A DNA stretch of 64,000 bases, taken from contig JBPCLP010000008.1 in NCBI GenBank assembly GCA_051003195.1, positions 28,154-92,153 on the forward strand. Direction: 5' to 3'. The notes under the pieces were generated by a model. That model was not told the origin of the DNA, did not search any database, and was given only the letters and a program-made list of their open reading frames with translations. A program made the translations under genes and the position numbers. Below, one piece after another: positions 1 to 64,000 of this stretch (the first letter of the stretch is position 1; every line of letters starts with the position of its first letter). The DNA comes from Candidatus Sumerlaeaceae bacterium. GTDB taxonomy: Bacteria > Sumerlaeota > Sumerlaeia > Sumerlaeales > Sumerlaeaceae.

Positions 1-381
1 GCAGATCTGCCGGGCGCATGGAACGATAAGGTGGAGTCTTTTCTTGGGCTGGTGCCGCCCACCGACGCTATGGGATGCCTGCAGGACATCCACTGGAGCA
101 GTGGCGCGATTGGGTATTTTCCGACTTACACGCTTGGCAACCTGATTGCGGCGCAACTCTTCGAGACTGCAAAACGTAATGTCGCAGACCTGGAGGAAGG
201 ATTTGGGAGGGGTGATTTTGTCCCACTTCTGAAGTGGCTGCGAGAGAACGTACACCAGCACGGAAAACGTTACAGCGCCGGGCAACTCGTGCAGCAGGCG
301 ACCGGAGCTTCGTTGAGCGCGGCCCCGCTGCTACGGCACCTGCGCACAAAGGCACACGAGTATTACGGCGTTTCTGCATAA
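1..381 (+). CDS. M32 metallocarboxypeptidase (carboxypeptidase Taq family), C-terminal fragment; 5' end lies outside the window
   Basis: Reading frame is open from nt 1 (ADLPGAWNDKVESFLGL...). C-terminal HWSSGAIGYFPTYTLGNLIAAQ block is typical of M32 carboxypeptidases. Stop at 379-381. Confidence 0.7.
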   Translation, partial: ADLPGAWNDKVESFLGLVPPTDAMGCLQDIHWSSGAIGYFPTYTLGNLIAAQLFETAKRNVADLEEGFGRGDFVPLLKWLRENVHQHGKRYSAGQLVQQATGASLSAAPLLRHLRTKAHEYYGVSA

Positions 382-5819: not shown

Positions 5820-5948
5820 TCAGTTAGAGCTTTGGATGCGCTTACATTCGCAGGATTTAGGAACCAATGTGTCGGTGCGGTCCCGACCGGACTCCTGCGC
5901 GCAGACTGGTACCTCCAGCAATGCCAGCGCTGAGCCCGGAGAAATTGC

Positions 5949-8900
5949 CTATTTTAGCATCTGCCAGTCGGACGCGGCGGCAACGCTTTGGATGGAGTAC
6001 TGCTCGGCCTTCAGGCTGTAGTTGTCTATGAACCATCCAGTCGGGCCATTTCGCTTTTCTGTGAAGCCGTTCCAGTTGTAAGTAAATACAACCTGCAGCG
6101 TGTGACCGGCCCATACTGCGGGATCGAGCTCCAGAGTCGTCAGCGTGTAAGGCAGCCCAGGACCGCCGTTCACATACCCGTCCTGGTTGGGATAGGCTGT
6201 ATATGTGCCGTCGAATTTCCCAGTGTAGCCATTTTTAATTTCCAGTACACCGGCAAGTGCACTGGCCATGTCCTGCTGCGAGCCGCCGTCTCTCAGCAGG
6301 AAAACTTTGCCGCCGGCCAGGCCGTAAAGCGATGACGCGTTTGTCTGATCAAACGAGAGGACAATGCGATTCGCGGTGGCAGGAATCAGGCTGACGGGAG
6401 ACTTTAACTGGTCGAGCTGATATTGATAGGGAAACGGCTCTTCGAAATGGGCGCACGTTGCGCCAGTCGCGGGTTTGGAGGTATCTGCCACCCACGCAGA
6501 ATCCACTCCGTTCAAGTTCGTCTGCGTAAATGCTCCGAAGCCACTCTCAAACCCTTCTGAAATATCCAGCAGCGTGGCAGGCACGCCGGAGCGTAACGTG
6601 ACCGGAAGGCTTGCCGCAAAATTGCCTAGATTGCTGGACAGCGTGAGCACCAGGTTGAGCTGGCAGCCGGCCGGAATAGAATCGGGAGTCGTGAACTCGA
6701 ATGCGGTAGAATTGCCCTGGGGGGCGCCACCCTGCGGTAGCGTCGGGTAAACTGACGCGGCCTGTATCACGCCTGCTTCGGTGCTGAAGCTGGCCAGTGC
6801 GGCCACCACACCAGTGGCGTCTTCGGAACCGACATTGCTCAGGTTAATCGTAAGGCGTATTCGTTCATTCCGGTCGATGCTTCCATTGCCATTTCCGCCG
6901 ATGCCGGAGTCGTCGATGGTAACGGAATCGAGCTTGATCTCAGGCCTGCCAACCATCCAGACGCCGCGTCCATGCGTGCCTGCGAGAAGTATCGAACGCG
7001 CATTGTCGATGCAGAGATCATCGACAGCGGAATTGGGTAACCCGGTGGAATAGTTCTGCCAGGAGGTGCCACCTGTCGTGGTACGGTACACGCCGACTTC
7101 TGTACCCAGGTACCACACGGAGGGGTTTGTGGAATCCAACGCAACACAGTTGACCGCGATTGCTGGAAAACCGGCGCTTCGGTTGGTGACGATGGGGCTG
7201 CCGGCTGCATTGGATATCTCATAAACCTGGTTGCTGGTAAAGCGGTAGAACACTGCGATGAAGTGATCAGGGTTTGTTGGATCCACTGCGATATCGGAAC
7301 AGTAGGAGCCATTAGGGTGCGTCGTAACAAGCGTCCATGCCGGGAGAACGGCCGACATGTTGCTGGTGCGAAAGACTTTGCCGCTTTCGAATCCAAGGTA
7401 GCAAATCTCGCCGTTGCCTGGCGCGAACGCGACGGCGGATATTTCATTGCCGGGATCAAGCTTGCCCGTCACATCAGCCCAGGTTGCACCGGTGCGCGCG
7501 GCGGAATTGCGCAGGAGCGAATCTCCGCCGAGCACGAGCATGTTCGGATTTGTGCTGTTCAGTGCGCCCTTTGCATAGAACGGGAAGGAATACGAACTGC
7601 TGGGGAACTGCGTGCTATTCGGCGAGATTTCACTCCAGCCATACCCCTGGATCGAACTGCGATATACGGTGTCGAAGATGTAGCCATTATATACATAACG
7701 GCTGTCGGTTGGGTCCCATAAAGTAAAGCCGCCATCGCCTGCGTTCACCAGGCTCCAAATGCCGGAGCCCAGGTAGCGGCATGTTCCATTATCCTGAGTA
7801 CCTGCGAGGATCTCGAACCTGGTTGGGTGGAGCGCGACCGCGTAGTTGTTGACCTGCAGCAAACCGAGCCCGGTGTTCAGGCTAACCCAGTCCGACACTC
7901 CGGGAGCATCTGTATAAAAAAGGCCGCCGTCGTTGCAGTCATAGAAGCGTGCGCCATCGGGTCGAAACAGTCCAAACTGATGATCGGCATGAAGCGACCT
8001 GTTACTTGCGACGTTTATAAAGTTGGAACTGCCATTCGTGGATCGATAAAGTGGCTGGCTGCCAGAAATATAAATCTCGTTTTCATTAACCGGATTTACC
8101 GCGACATACACGTTGTAGAAGAACTGGCCAGATCCTGAGCTCGCGTTGTAACTGCTGTCGATCTGGTTCCAGATGGCCCCTCCGTTTGTGGACTTGTAGA
8201 TTTTCAATTTGTCGTAATCAGGCGTCTGGGTCGTGAAATCAGTGTCGGCGTTAAAGACGGCGTACATGATGTTCGGGTTGGAAGGAGCCTGTACGAGATC
8301 GGCCAGTCCATCGCGGTGATTTGTGGCAATGCCCGTGTTCTGCTGTACCCAGGTGACACCGTTGTTTGTGGACTTGTAGAGACCTGAAGAGCCGGACGTG
8401 GAACTGGTTCGCGTCGCCCACCAAACCTGATTATTGCTCAAGTCCTGGATCACATTGTTAAAGCGTCCAGCCTGCGCGAGCGTAATGGACTGGAAGGCAT
8501 CGCTGGTGATGTAAATCCCGGCGAACGTCGCGGCAACAATCCTGCGCGTGGGTCCCGTTAAAGTGGTACGGTCGATCGTGATCTGCGCAATTTTTGAGCT
8601 TGCGAGGGTAGCGGACTGCCGGCTCACCCAGTTCGCACCGCTGTCGGTGGAGACGAGAATACCGGCCCCGGATTTCGCATCGCCCGACAACACGGCCTCG
8701 CCGGTGCCAACGTAGATTTCATTCGGAGCACCCTGGTTGACGGTAATACAGCCCGTCGCGAGGCTCGGCTGGTTGTCGGTGAGTGGTGTCCACGTCGCAC
8801 CATGGTTTGTTGTCTTCCACACACCGCCGTCTGCACCGCCGATGTAGAGAGTCTGGTAGGTGGGATCCGACGGATCAAATGCGGCGGACGAAATGCGACC

Positions 8901-9500
8901 GGACACCTTGCACTTGGGGCTGAAGGAGTTGGCCTGGCTTCCGACGACGGGTTGGCCATTGTATACAACGTTTGGACCGAGCTCGACCCAACGTGACCCG
9001 AAGATTTGCCCGGCGGGAAGCAGAGGAGTCTCGGGATCGGCGGGTGGTCCAACAGGCGCTGCCGTCGACTGGTCGCGCGACGGCAATTGTGGCAATGCGC
9101 GCAGCACCGGTTTGTTGCTGCGGATGTTTTCGATGCCGAGCAGCCGTAATCTCGCATGGCTGACCTTATTCTCGTCGGCCGCTAACCGGCGCCTTTTGGA
9201 TTCGTGCTGCAAGCGCCTGAAGACCATCGATTCGTCTTCCTCGCGTTCGACGACTTGCCCGGGAGCGGCGATGTCTCTCTCATCCTGGTCCCCCTTCACC
9301 GTAATTTTGGCAGGAGGGGTGGGCGGCACGGCCAGGGTGTTCAGATCGCTGGACGCGGCTGCAGGGAAAATTTGAGCATGTGCTGCCGAGCTAAGTCCAA
9401 TCGACAAAGCAAGCCAGACTTGCAGCGTGCCGCGGCTGCGGCTCGAAATTGCATCGCTCATGCGTAACGCATACACTTCAGAGTCAAAGGCATGACACAA
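5949..9500 (-). CDS. large secreted BNR/Asp-box repeat beta-propeller protein (sortilin/Vps10- or GH74-like) with C-terminal CARDB/Ig-like domains; signal peptide likely begins at the internal Met at 9461
   Basis: 1183 aa. Multiple S-x-D-x-G-x-T-W Asp-box motifs (TTNHGATW, STDSGANW, STNNGVTW, STNGGAIW, TTTGGTSW). Hydrophobic signal sequence LALSIGLSSAAHAQ. Confidence 0.8.
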   Translation of the reverse strand: MCHAFDSEVYALRMSDAISSRSRGTLQVWLALSIGLSSAAHAQIFPAAASSDLNTLAVPPTPPAKITVKGDQDERDIAAPGQVVEREEDESMVFRRLQHESKRRRLAADENKVSHARLRLLGIENIRSNKPVLRALPQLPSRDQSTAAPVGPPADPETPLLPAGQIFGSRWVELGPNVVYNGQPVVGSQANSFSPKCKVSGRISSAAFDPSDPTYQTLYIGGADGGVWKTTNHGATWTPLTDNQPSLATGCITVNQGAPNEIYVGTGEAVLSGDAKSGAGILVSTDSGANWVSRQSATLASSKIAQITIDRTTLTGPTRRIVAATFAGIYITSDAFQSITLAQAGRFNNVIQDLSNNQVWWATRTSSTSGSSGLYKSTNNGVTWVQQNTGIATNHRDGLADLVQAPSNPNIMYAVFNADTDFTTQTPDYDKLKIYKSTNGGAIWNQIDSSYNASSGSGQFFYNVYVAVNPVNENEIYISGSQPLYRSTNGSSNFINVASNRSLHADHQFGLFRPDGARFYDCNDGGLFYTDAPGVSDWVSLNTGLGLLQVNNYAVALHPTRFEILAGTQDNGTCRYLGSGIWSLVNAGDGGFTLWDPTDSRYVYNGYIFDTVYRSSIQGYGWSEISPNSTQFPSSSYSFPFYAKGALNSTNPNMLVLGGDSLLRNSAARTGATWADVTGKLDPGNEISAVAFAPGNGEICYLGFESGKVFRTSNMSAVLPAWTLVTTHPNGSYCSDIAVDPTNPDHFIAVFYRFTSNQVYEISNAAGSPIVTNRSAGFPAIAVNCVALDSTNPSVWYLGTEVGVYRTTTGGTSWQNYSTGLPNSAVDDLCIDNARSILLAGTHGRGVWMVGRPEIKLDSVTIDDSGIGGNGNGSIDRNERIRLTINLSNVGSEDATGVVAALASFSTEAGVIQAASVYPTLPQGGAPQGNSTAFEFTTPDSIPAGCQLNLVLTLSSNLGNFAASLPVTLRSGVPATLLDISEGFESGFGAFTQTNLNGVDSAWVADTSKPATGATCAHFEEPFPYQYQLDQLKSPVSLIPATANRIVLSFDQTNASSLYGLAGGKVFLLRDGGSQQDMASALAGVLEIKNGYTGKFDGTYTAYPNQDGYVNGGPGLPYTLTTLELDPAVWAGHTLQVVFTYNWNGFTEKRNGPTGWFIDNYSLKAEQYSIQSVAAASDWQMLK

Positions 9501-50201: not shown

Positions 50202-50384
50202 CAGTATAAGCCCTCGTACGAGGCAGCCAAGCCTGCCAACCCCGAAAGCCGATCGTCATCCCTGTTCACCGCCGGTCACGACCGAATGCTCAGGTCTGAA
50301 GCTCAACATAAAACCTGTATCACGTCTGGCTGGCTGTATTTTCTGCTGGCGAAGGTGTTTCCGAGGGGCGATCAAAAACGCGTT

Positions 50385-51842
50385 ATGACAGCATCTTTAA
50401 CCTACGAACCGGTGATCGGATTCGAAGTCCATGTAGAGCTTTGCACGGCATCCAAGGTCTGGTGCGGTTGTTCTACCGTCTTTGGCGCACCGCCGAACAC
50501 CCAGGTCTGTCCGGTGTGCCTCGGAATGCCCGGTTCGTTGCCCGTGCTCAACCAGCAGGCTATCGAATTCGCGCTGCGCACCGCGATTGCACTGAACTGC
50601 GATATTCCTGAGCGCATGAGTTTCGACCGCAAAAACTACTATTACCCCGATCTACCTAAAAACTACCAGATATCGCAGCAGTATGCGGCGCTCGGAACGA
50701 ACGGCTACATCGACATCGATGTGAATGGCGCCTTCAGGCGCATTCGAATTAATAACGTTCATCTCGAAGAAGACGCAGGCAAGCTTCTGCACCCTGAACA
50801 CTCCATCGGCGGTGATGATCATTCCCTCGTGGACCTCAACCGCGCCGGAACCCCGCTCCTGGAAATTGTATCGGAGCCTGATCTGGAGTCGCAGGATGAG
50901 GCGCTGGCATACATGCATACGCTGAAGAACCTGCTCGAGTACCTTGAAGTCAGCGACTGCAAAATGCAGGAAGGCCGTTTGCGCTTTGAAGTGAACATCA
51001 GTGTTCGCCCGTCCGGAACCAAGACGCTGGGTACCAAGGTGGAAATTAAAAACCTGAATTCCATGCGCGTCGCGTTGAAGTGCATTGAATACGAGACTCG
51101 CCGGCATAACGAGGTGCTTGGGGCAGGCGGGCGCGTTCTACAGGAGACGCGGCTTTGGGACGAACCCACAAGCATAACGCGCACCATGCGTTCAAAGGAA
51201 GTGGCAAACGACTATCGCTATTTCCCCGATCCAGATCTTGTGGAAGTGCAGGTAACGCCGGAGTGGCGTGAACAGATCCGGGCGAATCTCCCGGAATTAC
51301 AGGACGAAAAACGCAGGAGATTTATCGAGGAATATGGCCTGCCGGAATATGATGCCCGCATTTTGACCTCAACCAAGCCGATCGCGAGCTACTACGAGCG
51401 CGCGGTGATGGCGCACAAGAATGCCAAGTCGTTGAGTAACTGGATGATGACGGAAGTATTGCGCGAACTGAAGGAGCGCGGTCCGGATTCTGAGCCGGCC
51501 GATCTGCCACTCAATCCAGAAGACCTCGCTTCGTTGATACGGATGATTGACGAAGGCAAAGTCACAGGGAAAATTGCAAAAGACGTCTTCGCGAGGAGTA
51601 TGGCCGCGCAAGGTCGTCCGGCAGACATAGTCGAGCGCGAAGGCCTCGCGGCGGTCAGCGACCAGGGCGAGATTGAGTTACTCGTCGATGAAGTCATTGC
51701 CGAGAATGCGGATGTGGTAGCGAAAATTCGAGGCGGACAGGCCAAGGCTTTACAGGCGCTGGTTGGCCAGGTGATGAAAAAAAGCCGGGGGAAAGCAAGT
51801 CCGGCGGTTGTGAACGAGCTGTTGGCAAAAAAACTGGGGTAG
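50385..51842 (+). CDS. gatB: aspartyl/glutamyl-tRNA amidotransferase subunit B
   Basis: VIGFEVHVELCT...CPVCLGMPGSLPVLN, Zn-binding cysteines, C-terminal YqeY-like tail. Confidence 0.93.
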   Translation: MTASLTYEPVIGFEVHVELCTASKVWCGCSTVFGAPPNTQVCPVCLGMPGSLPVLNQQAIEFALRTAIALNCDIPERMSFDRKNYYYPDLPKNYQISQQYAALGTNGYIDIDVNGAFRRIRINNVHLEEDAGKLLHPEHSIGGDDHSLVDLNRAGTPLLEIVSEPDLESQDEALAYMHTLKNLLEYLEVSDCKMQEGRLRFEVNISVRPSGTKTLGTKVEIKNLNSMRVALKCIEYETRRHNEVLGAGGRVLQETRLWDEPTSITRTMRSKEVANDYRYFPDPDLVEVQVTPEWREQIRANLPELQDEKRRRFIEEYGLPEYDARILTSTKPIASYYERAVMAHKNAKSLSNWMMTEVLRELKERGPDSEPADLPLNPEDLASLIRMIDEGKVTGKIAKDVFARSMAAQGRPADIVEREGLAAVSDQGEIELLVDEVIAENADVVAKIRGGQAKALQALVGQVMKKSRGKASPAVVNELLAKKLG

Positions 51843-56833: not shown

Positions 56834-56911
56834 TCGGGGCGTAGCGTAGCCCGGTTATCGCGCCTGCCTTGGGAGCAGGAGGTCGCAGGTTCGAATCCTG
56901 CCGCCCCGACC
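56834..56911 (+). tRNA. tRNA-Pro (anticodon TGG)
   Basis: Cloverleaf read by hand: acceptor CGGGGCG/CGCCCCG, anticodon stem CCTGC/GCAGG with loop CTTGGGA (U33-UGG-G37), T-loop GGTTCGAATCC, encoded CCA. Confidence 0.85.
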
Positions 56912-57039
56912 AGTAACAACTCCTTCCGAAATGCCAAAAAAGGCACAAAACGCACGAAATAGAACCACGCGAATACCTCTTTCGATAGTAAGGAGCTGAT
57001 GTCCATCCGATCTCGCCCGAGCTGCTGCAACCGGAGGTT

Positions 57040-58452
57040 TTAATCCTTCGTGTGCAGGTAATGCATTCCCCAGCCGAGTTCCTCATTTCGGGTGCTACCG
57101 GTGCTGAAAATGCTGTCACCTCCGCCTAATGCATAGATTCTTTCGTTCACAACACAGGCTGCGAAGCTATGGCGAACCGTTGCAAGTGCCGCACCCTGGG
57201 TCCAGGTGTCGCTCGCTGGATCATAGACGTAGGTGTCCTGGGATATTTCGCCACCCGAACTGCCACCAAACGCATAGACTTTTCCACCCATGCCCACGAC
57301 ACCTAAGTTGTGCCTGGCAATCGGCATGGGGGACTTCGACGTCCACGTGTTGCTGCCGGGATCGTATTCCTCATTGGCTCCGGTATAAGTGGGCGACGCT
57401 CCAATCAACCCGCCGATGACGTAGATTTTTCCATTCACGGTGGCCGCGCCTGCTCCCTGCCGCACCGCCAGCATCGGTGCCAGCGGCGTCCAACTGTTGG
57501 ACACAGGGCTATAGGCTTCCGTGCTGCCCAGCGAGTTAAGAGCGCTGTCACTACCGCCAAATACGTAGATCTTGCCGTCGGAAACAGCCGCTGCGGCGAA
57601 GCTCCTGCCGACCGACATTGCCTGGGCGGGCGCCCATGCGTTTGTGCCGGGGTTGTACACCTGGTTCGTAGCGACAGCGACACCGGCAGATCGCCCGCCA
57701 ATGGCATATATCAGCCCATCCACCTGGGCACAACACAACCCCACACGGTTGTCTGGTGTGGCCAGCGAGCCCCAGCTGCTGGCAGCCGGGTTGAAGACGA
57801 GGTTATAGGGCGTGCTGCCGACGGCGCCAATGGCATACACTTTTCCAGCGGCCGATGCTGCCGCAAGTTGGGACATCGCAACCGGCATGGGAGGCCGCGT
57901 TTGCCAGCTGCCGAAAATGGCGCCGGTACGCGAAAAGCCGGCTGGCGCCGTCGCGGTGTTTCCCACGATCGCATAGCCGGCGGGAGTGCCATTCAGCGCG
58001 CTGTCTGCCACGTCGGAGTTGAGCGCCCGCACCGCAAACGGTACCGACTCCAGGCGTGTGGGCGGCAGTACGACATTTTGGGGAAGGTTGGCGTCAACGG
58101 CGACCTGCAGAAACATGGGCTCGTTGGTTACAAAGGCGGCGTCAGTCAACGGGCCCCCGAACAGAACGGTGCCCGTGCCCACGGTATGGTTCACCACGCC
58201 ATTACTCACGTTTAAAGCGGCTTGCTCGCCAAACACCTGGGTACCGGGCGATGGACCCACGCCCGCCGCACCGCGCCAGATGGAAAAGAAAAGCGTATGG
58301 GTGCTCTCCAGCGCACTGCCACCAGCACCCGTCAGCTTTGCCTGGTAATTGATACGCACCGGCTGCGTTGCTGAAGCGCTGACGCAAAACATTATGAAAC
58401 ACGCTGCGAGACATTGTACCGACGCTCGGCCGCCATTTCCGTGAATTCCCAT
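57040..58452 (-). CDS. secreted Kelch-repeat beta-propeller protein
   Basis: Signal peptide. Repeated Kelch motifs (GKVYAIGA, GLIYAIGGRS, GKIYVFGG, GKIYVIGG, GKVYAFGG, ERIYALGG) with W/Y spacing. Confidence 0.8.
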   Translation of the reverse strand: MGIHGNGGRASVQCLAACFIMFCVSASATQPVRINYQAKLTGAGGSALESTHTLFFSIWRGAAGVGPSPGTQVFGEQAALNVSNGVVNHTVGTGTVLFGGPLTDAAFVTNEPMFLQVAVDANLPQNVVLPPTRLESVPFAVRALNSDVADSALNGTPAGYAIVGNTATAPAGFSRTGAIFGSWQTRPPMPVAMSQLAAASAAGKVYAIGAVGSTPYNLVFNPAASSWGSLATPDNRVGLCCAQVDGLIYAIGGRSAGVAVATNQVYNPGTNAWAPAQAMSVGRSFAAAAVSDGKIYVFGGSDSALNSLGSTEAYSPVSNSWTPLAPMLAVRQGAGAATVNGKIYVIGGLIGASPTYTGANEEYDPGSNTWTSKSPMPIARHNLGVVGMGGKVYAFGGSSGGEISQDTYVYDPASDTWTQGAALATVRHSFAACVVNERIYALGGGDSIFSTGSTRNEELGWGMHYLHTKD

Positions 58453-61431: not shown

Positions 61432-61445
61432 ATGAGCGTGCCTCC

Positions 61446-61475
61446 TTAATCAAAACTAATCAAAACTAATCAAAC
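61446..61475. repeat. 9-bp tandem repeat (TAATCAAAAC) x3.3
   Basis: CTTAATCAAAACTAATCAAAACTAATCAAACA directly after the stop of the DUF4838-like gene. AATCAAACAGG recurs at 61508. Confidence 0.8.
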
Positions 61476-62547
61476 ATTGGCGTCGCTCGTTGGCATTTCA
61501 CGCTTTAAATCAAACAGGCCGATGGGGTAATTTCGCCCTTTGATTTCCGTAATGTTCAGATCATGTCGCCTCCAGTTCTTCTTTTGTTTTTTCGTCGGAG
61601 GCGTGTGAGGCGAGTGCGGATTGCGGAGTACAAGCCGGACTCGGAATCGTCGGCGGTAAGGCACGGCGGGTTGCGTTGTCAGCGTCATCATAATGTCTCC
61701 TTGGTGCTTTCAAGTTCAAGTTGGTAATTTCGCCACTTGAATAGCGGTAATCTTTCTGTAAGGTTTGCTCGTGCCGGCCCAACTCCGCCGCTTCAGTTTC
61801 ATCAGCAAACCAACAGCCTCCGCGAAACCTTCATGGCTGTTGCCTTCGGTTATTTGCTGGAACCCGTCAACCGCAGGCGAGACGCCTGCGCCACGAGGGT
61901 CGGCGGGGTCGGGGAATTGCGTTTGTTTTATCATTATGAGGACCTGTGTAGCACAGGCTTTTGGCTAATACAATTCCCGCACGACCCCTTAGAGACCCTT
62001 CGGGCACCTAAAAGTGCACAGGTTTCGGCTACAGTCGCCCGGCAGCCGCGGCCATGAAAAGAATCTGATCGGGAGCTGACCCAAAATCTTCCGCTGTTTC
62101 CCGGCTGTGTATTAACAAATTAACACATGGCCTGTCCCCTTGTTTCTACCTCGCCGCGGCAGTCATGAACCTCAAGCGCCTGGCGGCGCTGATCACCGCG
62201 CCTGGGGTGCCCAAAAAGCTGCACCAAGCCGCGTTTCCGCTCCTTCAGCGCCTGTTAAGCATATCATTGGAGCCCGATGTGAGTTCTTCGAAACGAAGCC
62301 ACTTCGGCCTTTGCTTCAGATGAACAAGGAACCGGGCCGTATGGGAAAGGGGTTCTTCAACAGCCCCACCGTCCCCGAATTAGCTCAATTAAACATGCCA
62401 TTGGCCGGGAAGTTGCACTATATAATATATATATTCTAGAGTCTACCGGTCCTTATTGATTAGTCATTGGACACCCGGAGGCGACTGGTAAACTAAACCC
62501 ACCGACCAGGTAAGGCGTACCGCGACGGGGTAATTGAGGAACGAATT

Positions 62548-64000
62548 ATGAGACGCTATTTTGCACAGGCCTTTAAAATGGCTCCAATAAACCCCCGAAT
62601 GATGGCGCTTCGGGCATTGGAGCGCATGCTGCTCAGCGTGCTTGTGGTACTTTGCACCAACCTTGCCATGGCTGCTTCATCGGGCTCGGTAGGGTATCTT
62701 GCCGACCAGCAGGTTGATGGCGTCGATGAGCTGTGGAGGGTAGACGCAAAGACTGGACTCCTGAGCAAGGTGAACGCGCCCCTGGTCGCTGGGGGGGATG
62801 TTCTTACCGGTTTGATCAGCCGTAAGGGTTCGGCCATCCTCTATCGTGCGGACCAGGATGTGAACGACATTTACGAGCTCTACTACAAAGACCTGAAGAC
62901 GGGCACTGTAAGCAAACTAAACCCGACGCTGGTGCCCGATGGAGATGTGGATTCTGGTTTCCAGATGGACTCAAAGGCTGCGAGCGTAGTCTACCGGGCA
63001 GACCAGGACGAGACCAGCGTCAGCGAGCTTTACCGGGTGGACCTGAAGACGCGTGTCGTCACTCAATTGAATCCCCCCCTGGCAGTAGGCAGGGATGTCT
63101 CTGATGGTTTTCAGGTTGATCCAAAGGGCACAAGCGTGGCGTACCGGGCCGATCAGGACACGGACGATGTGAAGGAACTCTATCGCGTCGTCTTGAAAAC
63201 TGGCGTGGTGACCAAGCTCAATCCACCTCTTGTATCAGGTGGTAACGTGCGAAATCTGCTGTTCGACTCAAAGGGTGCGAGCATAGTGTACAGGGCCGAC
63301 CAGGATGTGGACGGTGTCTCGGAACTTTACCGAGTAGACCTGAAGACACTTATCGTCAGGAAACTGAATTCGCCGCTGGTCGCCGGTGGAAACGTCTCGG
63401 CTGATTTCCAGATTGATCCAAAAGGTGCAAGCGTGGTGTACAGGGCCGACCAGGATGTAGACGAAGTCTTTGAACTTTATCGGTCCGACCTGAAGACCGG
63501 TGTCATCACAAAAGTGAACCCGCCGCTAATTTCAGGTGGTGACGTCCGGAGTTTCGCCATCGATCCCAAGGGGACAAGTGTCGTGTACAGGGCCGACCAA
63601 AGGTTCGCTGGCGTCATCGAAGTCTTCCGGTTGGACCTGAAGACCGGTCTTGTTGTCAGATTGAGCGAACCAATGCCTCCCGGCGGCGACGTGGTGAGCT
63701 TTCAGATCGACTCGAAGGGTGCGAGTGTAGTTTACGTAGCCGACCAGGACTCGGATGACAGGAATGAACTTTACCGCGCTGACCTGAAAACTGGTCTGGT
63801 AACCGAGCTGAATGCACAGTTGGTAACAGGCGGAAATGTCGTGGATTTCCAGATAGATCCAGGTGGAGCGAGCATCGTGTACAGGGCCGACCAGGACGTG
63901 AACGAAGTTTTCGAACTTTACCGCGTGGACATAAAAACGCGACTGGTGATGAAGCTGAATCAGCCCCTTGTGTTGAACGGTGATGTGCTGGCTTTCGGGG
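62548..64000 (+). CDS. secreted tandem-repeat beta-propeller protein (at least nine 48-aa PD40/TolB-like repeats); 3' end outside the window
   Basis: My own translation. RBS GAGGA sits 7 nt before the ATG. N-terminal signal/anchor (MMALRALERMLLSVLVVLCTNLAMAAS). Then ELYRVDLKTGvVTKLNPPLVsGGDVxxFQIDPKGASVVYRADQDVDEV repeated with a 144-nt period to the window end. Absent from the supplied ORF track, which lists only ORFs with an in-window stop. Confidence 0.85.
   Translation, partial: MRRYFAQAFKMAPINPRMMALRALERMLLSVLVVLCTNLAMAASSGSVGYLADQQVDGVDELWRVDAKTGLLSKVNAPLVAGGDVLTGLISRKGSAILYRADQDVNDIYELYYKDLKTGTVSKLNPTLVPDGDVDSGFQMDSKAASVVYRADQDETSVSELYRVDLKTRVVTQLNPPLAVGRDVSDGFQVDPKGTSVAYRADQDTDDVKELYRVVLKTGVVTKLNPPLVSGGNVRNLLFDSKGASIVYRADQDVDGVSELYRVDLKTLIVRKLNSPLVAGGNVSADFQIDPKGASVVYRADQDVDEVFELYRSDLKTGVITKVNPPLISGGDVRSFAIDPKGTSVVYRADQRFAGVIEVFRLDLKTGLVVRLSEPMPPGGDVVSFQIDSKGASVVYVADQDSDDRNELYRADLKTGLVTELNAQLVTGGNVVDFQIDPGGASIVYRADQDVNEVFELYRVDIKTRLVMKLNQPLVLNGDVLAFG

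Follow-up and report, generated by a model that had tools for sequence, protein, structure and literature searches.

At the right-hand end of the window (the whole 64,000-nucleotide stretch that was analysed), an open reading frame on the + strand runs from an ATG at 62548 to the window end at 64000, giving 484 translated codons. Its translation and its homologues suggest an exported beta-propeller protein. The features of the locus are:

61432..62547, neither strand: 1.1-kb spacer (GC 0.522) between a DUF4838 gene and the propeller gene.
62535..62539, + strand: Shine-Dalgarno-like GAGGA, 7 nt 5' of the ATG at 62548, seen directly in the sequence.
62548..64000, + strand: open reading frame of 484 codons that meets no stop in the window, for a predicted exported beta-propeller of the PD40/DPPIV-N type (translation, homologues).
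62599/62602, + strand: alternative ATG start (M18/M19), which coincides with the start of the homologues.
62548..62679, + strand: predicted Sec signal peptide, residues 1-44 (charge, hydropathy, AxA site).
62686..63999, + strand: nine tandem blade units of 49-50 aa each (ADQ anchoring, DNA periodicity, AF2 strands).
63286..63308, + strand: longest exact repeated word, 23 nt, GTGTACAGGGCCGACCAGGATGT, with a second copy at 63436-63458 (k-mer count).

The initial annotation, made from the letters and a list of open reading frames, had proposed a good ribosome-binding site and start codon at 62548 followed by a frame open to 64000, and we agree: GAGGA stands 7 nt from the ATG and the 484 codons are unbroken. 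The reading frame has homologues with E values as low as 1e-180, and its GC content at the three codon positions (0.64/0.37/0.63) is what one expects of coding DNA. At the alternative start, M19 falls in an invariant Met column of the A3 alignment. It had also been remarked that the gene is absent from the supplied track of open reading frames. Mundane explanations exist for this: the frame meets no stop in the window, and public annotation seemingly lacks the protein as well.

The protein is predicted to be exported by the Sec pathway. Its N-terminus reads MRRYFAQAFKMAPINPRMMALRALERMLLSVLVVLCTNLAMA, followed directly by ASSG. A positively charged n-region with Arg residues precedes a hydrophobic core, LLSVLVVLCTNLAMA, which spans approximately residues 23-43 (hydropathy exceeds 1.6 in windows beginning at residues 23-33), and cleavage would likely occur after AMA (A44), between AMA and AS. 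AF2 renders residues 16-38 as a helix with low pLDDT. All of these traits look Sec-like, as the initial annotation had supposed in calling this a signal-peptide protein. The N-termini of homologues are comparable, and relatives carry signal peptides of their own. Since VLC does not form a lipobox, a lipoprotein was rejected. Among the domains precomputed from Pfam for some relatives are PF03160, PF18962, PF07589, PF00041 and PF17892, which we take to be Calx-beta, the T9SS tail, PEP-CTERM, fn3 and a cadherin-like domain, respectively; the first four of these modules, together with the relatives' signal peptides, support an extracellular role.

Past the signal peptide, the in-window protein consists of tandem units only. 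Anchored on the invariant ADQ, the units start at residues 52, 101, 151, 201, 250, 300, 349, 398 and 447; eight are complete, and the window end cuts the ninth within its last strand. Elsewhere in the window the unit does not recur. At least nine near-identical units of 48 aa (144 nt) had been claimed. The count of nine stands and the period does not: the ADQ-anchored starts lie 49-50 residues apart, which sets the period at 49-50 aa, the array has a DNA periodicity of 147/150 nt, and even the consensus string offered for the supposed 48-aa unit counts 49 residues. Nor are the units near-identical. Protein identity between units averages 57% (range 43-69%, median 57-58%) and DNA identity 61% (range 52-72%), a k-mer count of the propeller gene yields no exact word of 25 nt or more common to units, and 2.2 copies, at 76%, are all that Tandem Repeats Finder (TRF) detects. 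It is true that GTGTACAGGGCCGACCAGGATGT occurs twice, at 63286 and 63436 as listed above, and a 20-nt core of it occurs three times, the third at 63877. This 23-nt word encodes the most conserved peptide of the protein, VYRADQDV, and it does not bear out the DNA-level conservation of the repeats for which it had been cited.

Each unit holds four strands (VVYRA, ELYRVD, TKL and xFQID), the first strand of the array beginning at residue 47. We ran AF2 on the 484-aa window fragment with an alignment of 80 sequences, and the model (pLDDT 93.4, pTM 0.87) contains 36 strands in nine sets of four, so that each repeat corresponds to one blade. Structure prediction had been proposed as a check on propeller closure, and the outcome is favourable: nine four-stranded blades in a predicted closed ring. 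The top Foldseek matches of the model were DPP-IV, S9 peptidases and TolB. The in-window part is thus modelled as a single nine-bladed ring, in which the number nine is not proven by AF2, because AF2 would close any number of blades supplied to it. By analogy with PD40 blades, the chain would begin with strands B-C-D and end with strand A; the first blade would thus be filled out by the last strand, a putative "velcro" closure of the ring.

In profile searches, DPPIV_N alone among the Pfam families exceeds its curated threshold (38.1 bits against 22), with weaker propeller families also appearing; the NCBIfam TolB propeller model TIGR02800 matches with an E value of 5e-8, but with 32 bits against a cutoff of 343. 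The initial annotation had likened the units to PD40/TolB-type blades and recommended a search with Pfam PD40 (PF07676, gathering score 20.9 bits). That profile gave no match to the window protein at E ≤ 10, and none to its nearest relatives, L001p and P0001. It does pass its cutoff, at 44-68 bits, in the homologues P0014, P0022 and P0047, whose identity to the window protein is given as 35-41% and as 37-43%. Since PD40 matches the homologues and not the protein itself, membership of PD40 is transitive only, at the level of the superfamily. At that level the profiles and the predicted fold agree in assigning the protein to the PD40/DPPIV-N propeller lineage; the proposed lineage is therefore upheld by DPPIV_N, TIGR02800 and the PD40 matches of homologues, while the match to PD40 itself falls away.

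The family is large. A word-indexed search of a collection of 15 billion proteins gave at least 1,526 relatives, the best identity among the matches listed being 46%, to a 578-aa protein of a Planctomycetota MAG; many of these relatives bear the source labels "Tol biopolymer transport system component" or "PD40 domain-containing protein" (JGI, NCBI). An exhaustive search of 1.84 billion representatives of 50%-identity clusters brought up 4,944 clusters at E ≤ 1e-3, of which 1,492 reach E ≤ 1e-30, and identity exceeds 50% in none of them; many cluster representatives are about 1,050 aa long and some reach 3,385 aa. Among species-representative genomes the closest relative is L001, a 479-aa protein with nine units from the MAG of an uncultured "delta proteobacterium", at 53% identity. 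Family members occur in Planctomycetota, Nitrospira, Binatia, Chloroflexota, Woeseiaceae and other taxa. Nine blades is the usual number; 10-11 blades, or multiples, also occur, and members of the P0001 clade have 11 units. The genomes of several relatives carry two to four tandem propeller paralogues. The Pfam lists of the best 120 of the at least 1,526 homologues name no catalytic domain of peptidase S9. A single-protein search of the PDB by sequence found matches only at E ≥ 0.04, and the A3 profile found none. A literature search on PF26549 and PF26550, which appear in the precomputed domain lists, found nothing. We take the window gene to be an ordinary member of a large bacterial family that is uncharacterised, and the highest identity to anything public is 53%.

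We turn to the age of the repeats. The initial annotation had read them as the product of recent expansion or concerted evolution, and had thought in-frame change of copy number by recombination plausible. Stated fully, this reading holds that near-identical DNA repeats would let blades be frequently added or dropped in frame, through recombination or slippage, and so vary a surface propeller in the manner of a contingency locus. It has some points in its favour. Blade number varies among distant relatives (9, 10, 11, 15-21). The blades of the window protein have no positional counterparts in L001p or P0001, as past independent amplification or homogenisation would leave them; each is instead closest to the most consensus-like blade of those proteins, and blade identity between proteins (0.56) is about that within the window protein (0.57). 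L001 is indeed homogeneous at the DNA level, its units having exact words of at least 40 nt in common and using the same codon for identical residues at a frequency of 0.80 against 0.59 expected.

The window gene itself tells against recent expansion. For identical residues in pairs of its units, the same codon is used at a frequency of 0.45, against 0.40 expected from the codon usage of the gene, so synonymous sites are close to saturation. A few pairs use the same codon more often than the average pair, namely units 8-9 (0.70) and units 5-6 and 5-8 (both 0.61), which favours the recent-expansion reading to that extent. On the other side, the units are only 52-72% identical in DNA, the longest common word is the 23-nt one in two copies, located on the conserved VYRADQDV, and TRF barely detects the array. 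Low DNA identity, near-random synonymous sites and the weak TRF signal indicate that the blades are old and offer no substrate for efficient homologous recombination or slippage; with a mean DNA identity of 61% and no word above 23 nt, change of copy number by recombination is no likelier here than in any diverged repeat protein. A contingency or phase-variable tandem-repeat gene, which is recognised by near-identical DNA repeats, was rejected on the same figures (52-72% DNA identity, a longest word of 23 nt, TRF 2.2 copies at 76%). We consider recent or ongoing expansion of this array very improbable. DNA-level homogeneity thus occurs in the propeller family, in L001, and not in the window gene, which gives no sign of ongoing concerted evolution. 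What is seen is compatible with an amplification or homogenisation long ago, after which the blades drifted around a consensus under strong selection. In this reading the blades are old copies kept near the family-wide consensus by purifying selection rather than recent duplicates.

The end of the gene lies beyond the window, and relatives help to judge how far. L001 has nine units and its protein stops 2 aa after its truncated ninth unit, and little of the window gene may therefore be missing. In 64 of 175 relatives the C-terminus lies within 8 aa of a truncated last unit, and the commonest count among these 64 is nine units (36 proteins). Typical C-termini of stand-alone relatives are GGDVLEFSLIQ and GGEVYDFVIVP, each followed by a stop, and the last residues of the window protein, NGDVLAFG, resemble this degenerate terminal strand. 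On balance we slightly favour a gene that ends no more than about 10 codons past the window.

In a competing view, what the window contains is just the N-terminal propeller of a longer, multidomain protein, with more blades (a 10-11-bladed ring, or a second propeller), C-terminal adhesion, sorting-signal or enzymatic modules, or both. Some 72 of the 175 relatives (about 41%) do have more than 60 aa beyond their last detected unit, the Pfam lists of relatives include PF03160, PF18962, PF07589, PF00041 and PF17892, many representatives have the length of about 1,050 aa already mentioned with others up to 3,385 aa, and alignment to the 11-unit P0001 clade predicts one more unit past the window. 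The end of L001 at 53% identity, the modal count of nine in stand-alone members, the likeness of NGDVLAFG to their terminal strands and the missing S9 catalytic domain in the lists of the best 120 homologues all weigh against it. We rate a longer protein as a serious possibility, though one that we do not favour.

Direct searches for the missing 3' part gave the following. Exact DNA searches returned no match to the gene start in genome contigs and none to the window end in metagenome contigs, and a protein search found no identical fragment to the last 100 aa. Look-ups through neighbouring proteins led only to short Logan contigs of SRR33880242, a run that contains the same organism, and all of these contigs end before the propeller gene. 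The product is also absent, even as a fragment, from the collection of 15 billion proteins in which four neighbours on the same contig are present (GatB, DprA, Kelch and DUF4838; MGI8905271, 75, 77, 78). A pseudogene or an assembly artefact of the MAG, with a downstream frameshift or with collapsed or expanded repeats, would explain this missing record and would accord with the gene's absence from the supplied track. Such an explanation has to contend with 484 unbroken codons that show family-typical conservation in every blade, a very confident AF2 model, a good ribosome-binding site and normal GC3; moreover, annotation pipelines often mark repeat proteins of variable length as "incomplete" where there is no real lesion. 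We judge the pseudogene or artefact unlikely, and a lesion downstream of the window end, taken by itself, a little more unlikely still.

The region around the gene is ordinary chromosome. Four proteins of the window (GatB, DprA, Kelch and DUF4838) have identical counterparts on a contig of a Sumerlaeaceae MAG at NCBI, which identifies the host as Candidatus Sumerlaeaceae. The window carries SMC, GatB, DprA, tRNA-Pro, sensor kinases and glycan-active enzymes, and the genes near the propeller gene are DUF4838, Kelch, tRNA-Pro and DprA. An AT-richer, island-like setting had been described for the gene, a description that we could not sustain in the presence of housekeeping genes in the same window. 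The gene has a GC content of 0.548 against 0.569 +/- 0.015 for the window (8th percentile), and its GC3 of 0.63 resembles that of neighbouring genes (0.61-0.71); the deficit comes from codon position 2 (0.37) and reflects amino-acid composition. Downstream of the tRNA-Pro gene, neither an integrase nor att-like (tRNA-derived) direct repeats were found within the window. The only AT-richer part around the propeller gene is the upstream spacer (61432-62547, 0.522). This spacer contains no Pfam-matching open reading frame and no Rfam match, the Rfam scans of window and spacer yielding only tRNA-Pro, and its terminator-like hairpins exceed shuffled controls by only about 2 SD. With these 1.1 kb between it and the DUF4838 gene, the propeller gene probably forms a separate transcription unit. 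An all-against-all BLAST of flanking open reading frames at 67 related loci detected no conserved neighbour genes; all that it picked up were antisense shadows of the propeller gene or synteny confined to Nitrospira.

Most blades carry a conserved acidic hairpin loop, A-D-Q-D-x-D-G-x-x-E. Across 1,625 blades the best conserved positions are the A-D-Q at the strand end (A 100%, D 92%, Q 82%), followed by the E-L-Y with which the next strand opens (E 94%) and by the tyrosine in VVY (94%). The loop consensus is DQDTDGVxE, in which the Gly at position 6 is conserved in only 38% of the family. A strict motif, Dx[DN]xDG with an acidic residue, fits one of the nine window blades and 12% of family blades; the relaxed D-x-[DN]-x-[DN]-x3-E fits six of the nine and 39%, respectively, and both are found at a rate of about 0 in shuffled controls. 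The loop probably has a putative role that is either structural or in binding a cation or another ligand. Binding of a cation in particular we treat as a lead and not as a finding, and as doubtful.

Taken together, we are reasonably confident that the window contains the 5' part, or nearly the whole, of a chromosomal Sumerlaeaceae gene for a Sec-exported, stand-alone nine-blade propeller of the PD40/DPPIV-N lineage, with old blades and a putative role as a binding scaffold. A propeller that has no catalytic domain in the window would act in the periplasm or outside the cell, holding a protein or glycan ligand, and a putative exported, non-enzymatic binding platform is the most likely description of it. 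The gene points neither to a mechanism of variation nor to a mobile island. Its significance is small, as one more divergent member of a widespread, uncharacterised family of exported PD40-like propellers; that family has thousands of members in environmental bacteria, without a solved structure or known function. The window gene is nonetheless a clean example of an aged and still regular nine-blade array, useful for studies of the origin of propellers by amplification, and the conserved acidic loop gives a lead on cation or ligand binding that can be put to the test.

Among known systems, the closest in blade motif is the PD40/TolB type (PF07676; COG0823, "Tol biopolymer transport system component"), with which the window protein shares the progression SPDG/DPKG, hhY.AD and ..ELY.V. 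TolB, which is among the top Foldseek matches, is likewise exported to the cell envelope, as predicted for the window protein. TolB is a six-bladed propeller with an N-terminal alpha/beta domain, encoded in the tol-pal operon. The window protein differs in having nine blades, no additional domain in the window and no tol-pal genes nearby. Assignment to TolB as the TIGR02800 equivalog was accordingly rejected (32 bits against at least 343, nine blades, no N-terminal domain, neighbours other than tol-pal).

DPP-IV and prolyl oligopeptidase of family S9 (PF00930, PF02897) have the DPPIV_N profile in common with the window protein. Their propellers are, in the case of DPP-IV, eight-bladed, strongly diverged and fused to an alpha/beta-hydrolase, whereas the window blades are 57% identical to one another and neither the window nor the Pfam lists of the best 120 of at least 1,526 homologues show an alpha/beta-hydrolase domain. 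With the S9 catalytic domain missing from those lists, a DPP-IV/S9 peptidase seems unlikely. The nine-bladed propellers of eIF2A and eIF3b are 8-13% identical to the window protein; they are eukaryotic, cytosolic and WD40-like, and resemble it in ring size alone, not in family.

The acidic loop recalls the calcium blades of integrin-alpha, VCBS and PilY1 propellers, whose Dx[DN]xDG loops are followed two positions on by an acidic residue (PMC3123361, PMC8023676). In unit 5 the loop DQDVDGVSE fits Dx[DN]xDG with the acidic residue at the described spacing, the window loop lies in a hairpin that joins two adjacent strands of the AF2 model, and the protein is predicted to be extracellular. It differs in that the window loop would be B-C by analogy with PD40, as opposed to A-B for the integrin loop, and neither FG-GAP nor VCBS profiles match the window protein. 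One can extend this likeness to a picture in which the window protein represents a large clade within the PD40 lineage, its members being exported, stand-alone propellers with a ring size of nine that is unusual in bacteria, blades that would be repeatedly re-amplified or homogenised in different lineages, and, on most blades, Dx[DN]x[DN]-x3-E loops that would form a ring of Ca2+ or ligand sites. Repeated re-amplification or homogenisation would explain both the absence of positional orthology and the DNA homogeneity of L001, and if the picture is true, a "calcium blade" has arisen independently in the PD40 lineage. We hold this to be speculative and, as a whole, doubtful.

A further comparison is with the highly repetitive propellers amplified from single blades, which are defined by a median blade identity above 60%; blade amplification is documented also in DPPIV-like lineages (Pereira & Lupas 2022, PMC9218822). 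As in those proteins (PMC9218822), the window protein is a bacterial, predicted exported protein with a regular tandem array of similar blades that are without positional orthology between relatives. Its relative L001p, at 61-62% blade identity, lies within that class. The window protein narrowly misses it, with a median of 57-58% against the required >60% and with saturated synonymous sites, and was for this reason not classed as a recently amplified propeller (PMC9218822). Those same two observations mark it as an aged, rather than a recent, product of blade amplification.

The PD40-like propeller product (window 62548-64000), predicted to be exported, is itself missing from the 15-billion protein collection, where not even a fragment of it occurs. 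Four proteins from the same NCBI MAG contig do occur there: GatB, DprA, the Kelch-repeat protein and the DUF4838 protein (MGI8905271, 75, 77 and 78, respectively). The propeller gene probably has no protein in public annotation, either because it was flagged as a pseudogene or because the gene was not called. GatB differs in length between sources, at 518 aa as called in a Logan contig versus 485 aa in the NCBI annotation, where the start lies 33 codons later; this is a start-codon discrepancy only. Features noted outside the propeller gene and its upstream spacer are as follows.

5949-9500, minus strand, gene whose 1,183-aa product matches Sortilin/Vps10 (Asp-box)
50286-51842, plus strand, GatB ORF (longest form, 518 aa)
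56835-56912, plus strand, tRNA-Pro (TGG), 5.6 kb upstream of the propeller gene
57040-58452, minus strand, Kelch-repeat protein gene

The Kelch-repeat and Sortilin/Vps10 genes are two more propeller-type genes in the window, belonging to lineages other than the PD40-like one.

We find no sign of an island inserted at the tRNA-Pro gene, because neither an integrase nor a tRNA-derived direct repeat follows it within the window. The spacer that separates the propeller gene from DUF4838 has a GC fraction of 0.522, among the lowest 1% of the window, and contains no feature matching Pfam or Rfam; the following elements were recognized.

61432-62547, the 1.1-kb spacer itself
61447-61474, tandem repeat TAATCAAAAC (2.8 copies), directly after the DUF4838 stop
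61470-61691, minus strand, small ORF
61526 and 61723, copies of the 18-nt direct repeat GGTAATTTCGCC(C/A)(T/C)TTGA
61716-61934, minus strand, small ORF
62417-62442, AT palindrome

Both small ORFs look non-coding.

The closest relative of the window propeller (53% identity) is a 479-aa protein, likewise of nine units, encoded at 5920-7359 of locus L001 (CAVXZE010000009.1, an uncultured delta proteobacterium MAG). Its repeats are far more homogeneous at the DNA level than those of the window gene, with exact words of at least 40 nt in common between units and a same-codon fraction of 0.80 against 0.59 expected. Of the two genes, the one in L001 is the better candidate for a recent amplification of blades or for gene conversion. 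A transposase-like ORF lies immediately downstream of the L001 gene.

Blade number varies further among other relatives. The Planctomycetota clade P0001-P0005 has 11 units, including one additional degenerate unit relative to the window protein (a 51-aa insertion at residues ~258-310 of P0001); AlphaFold confidence is low for this extra unit, possibly a blade that is decaying or looped out. In several genomes, two to four paralogues of the family stand in tandem (related loci L005, L007, L013, L028, L033 and L046). Some family proteins have 15-21 units, with representatives of up to 3,385 aa, which suggests that the family includes multi-propeller giants.
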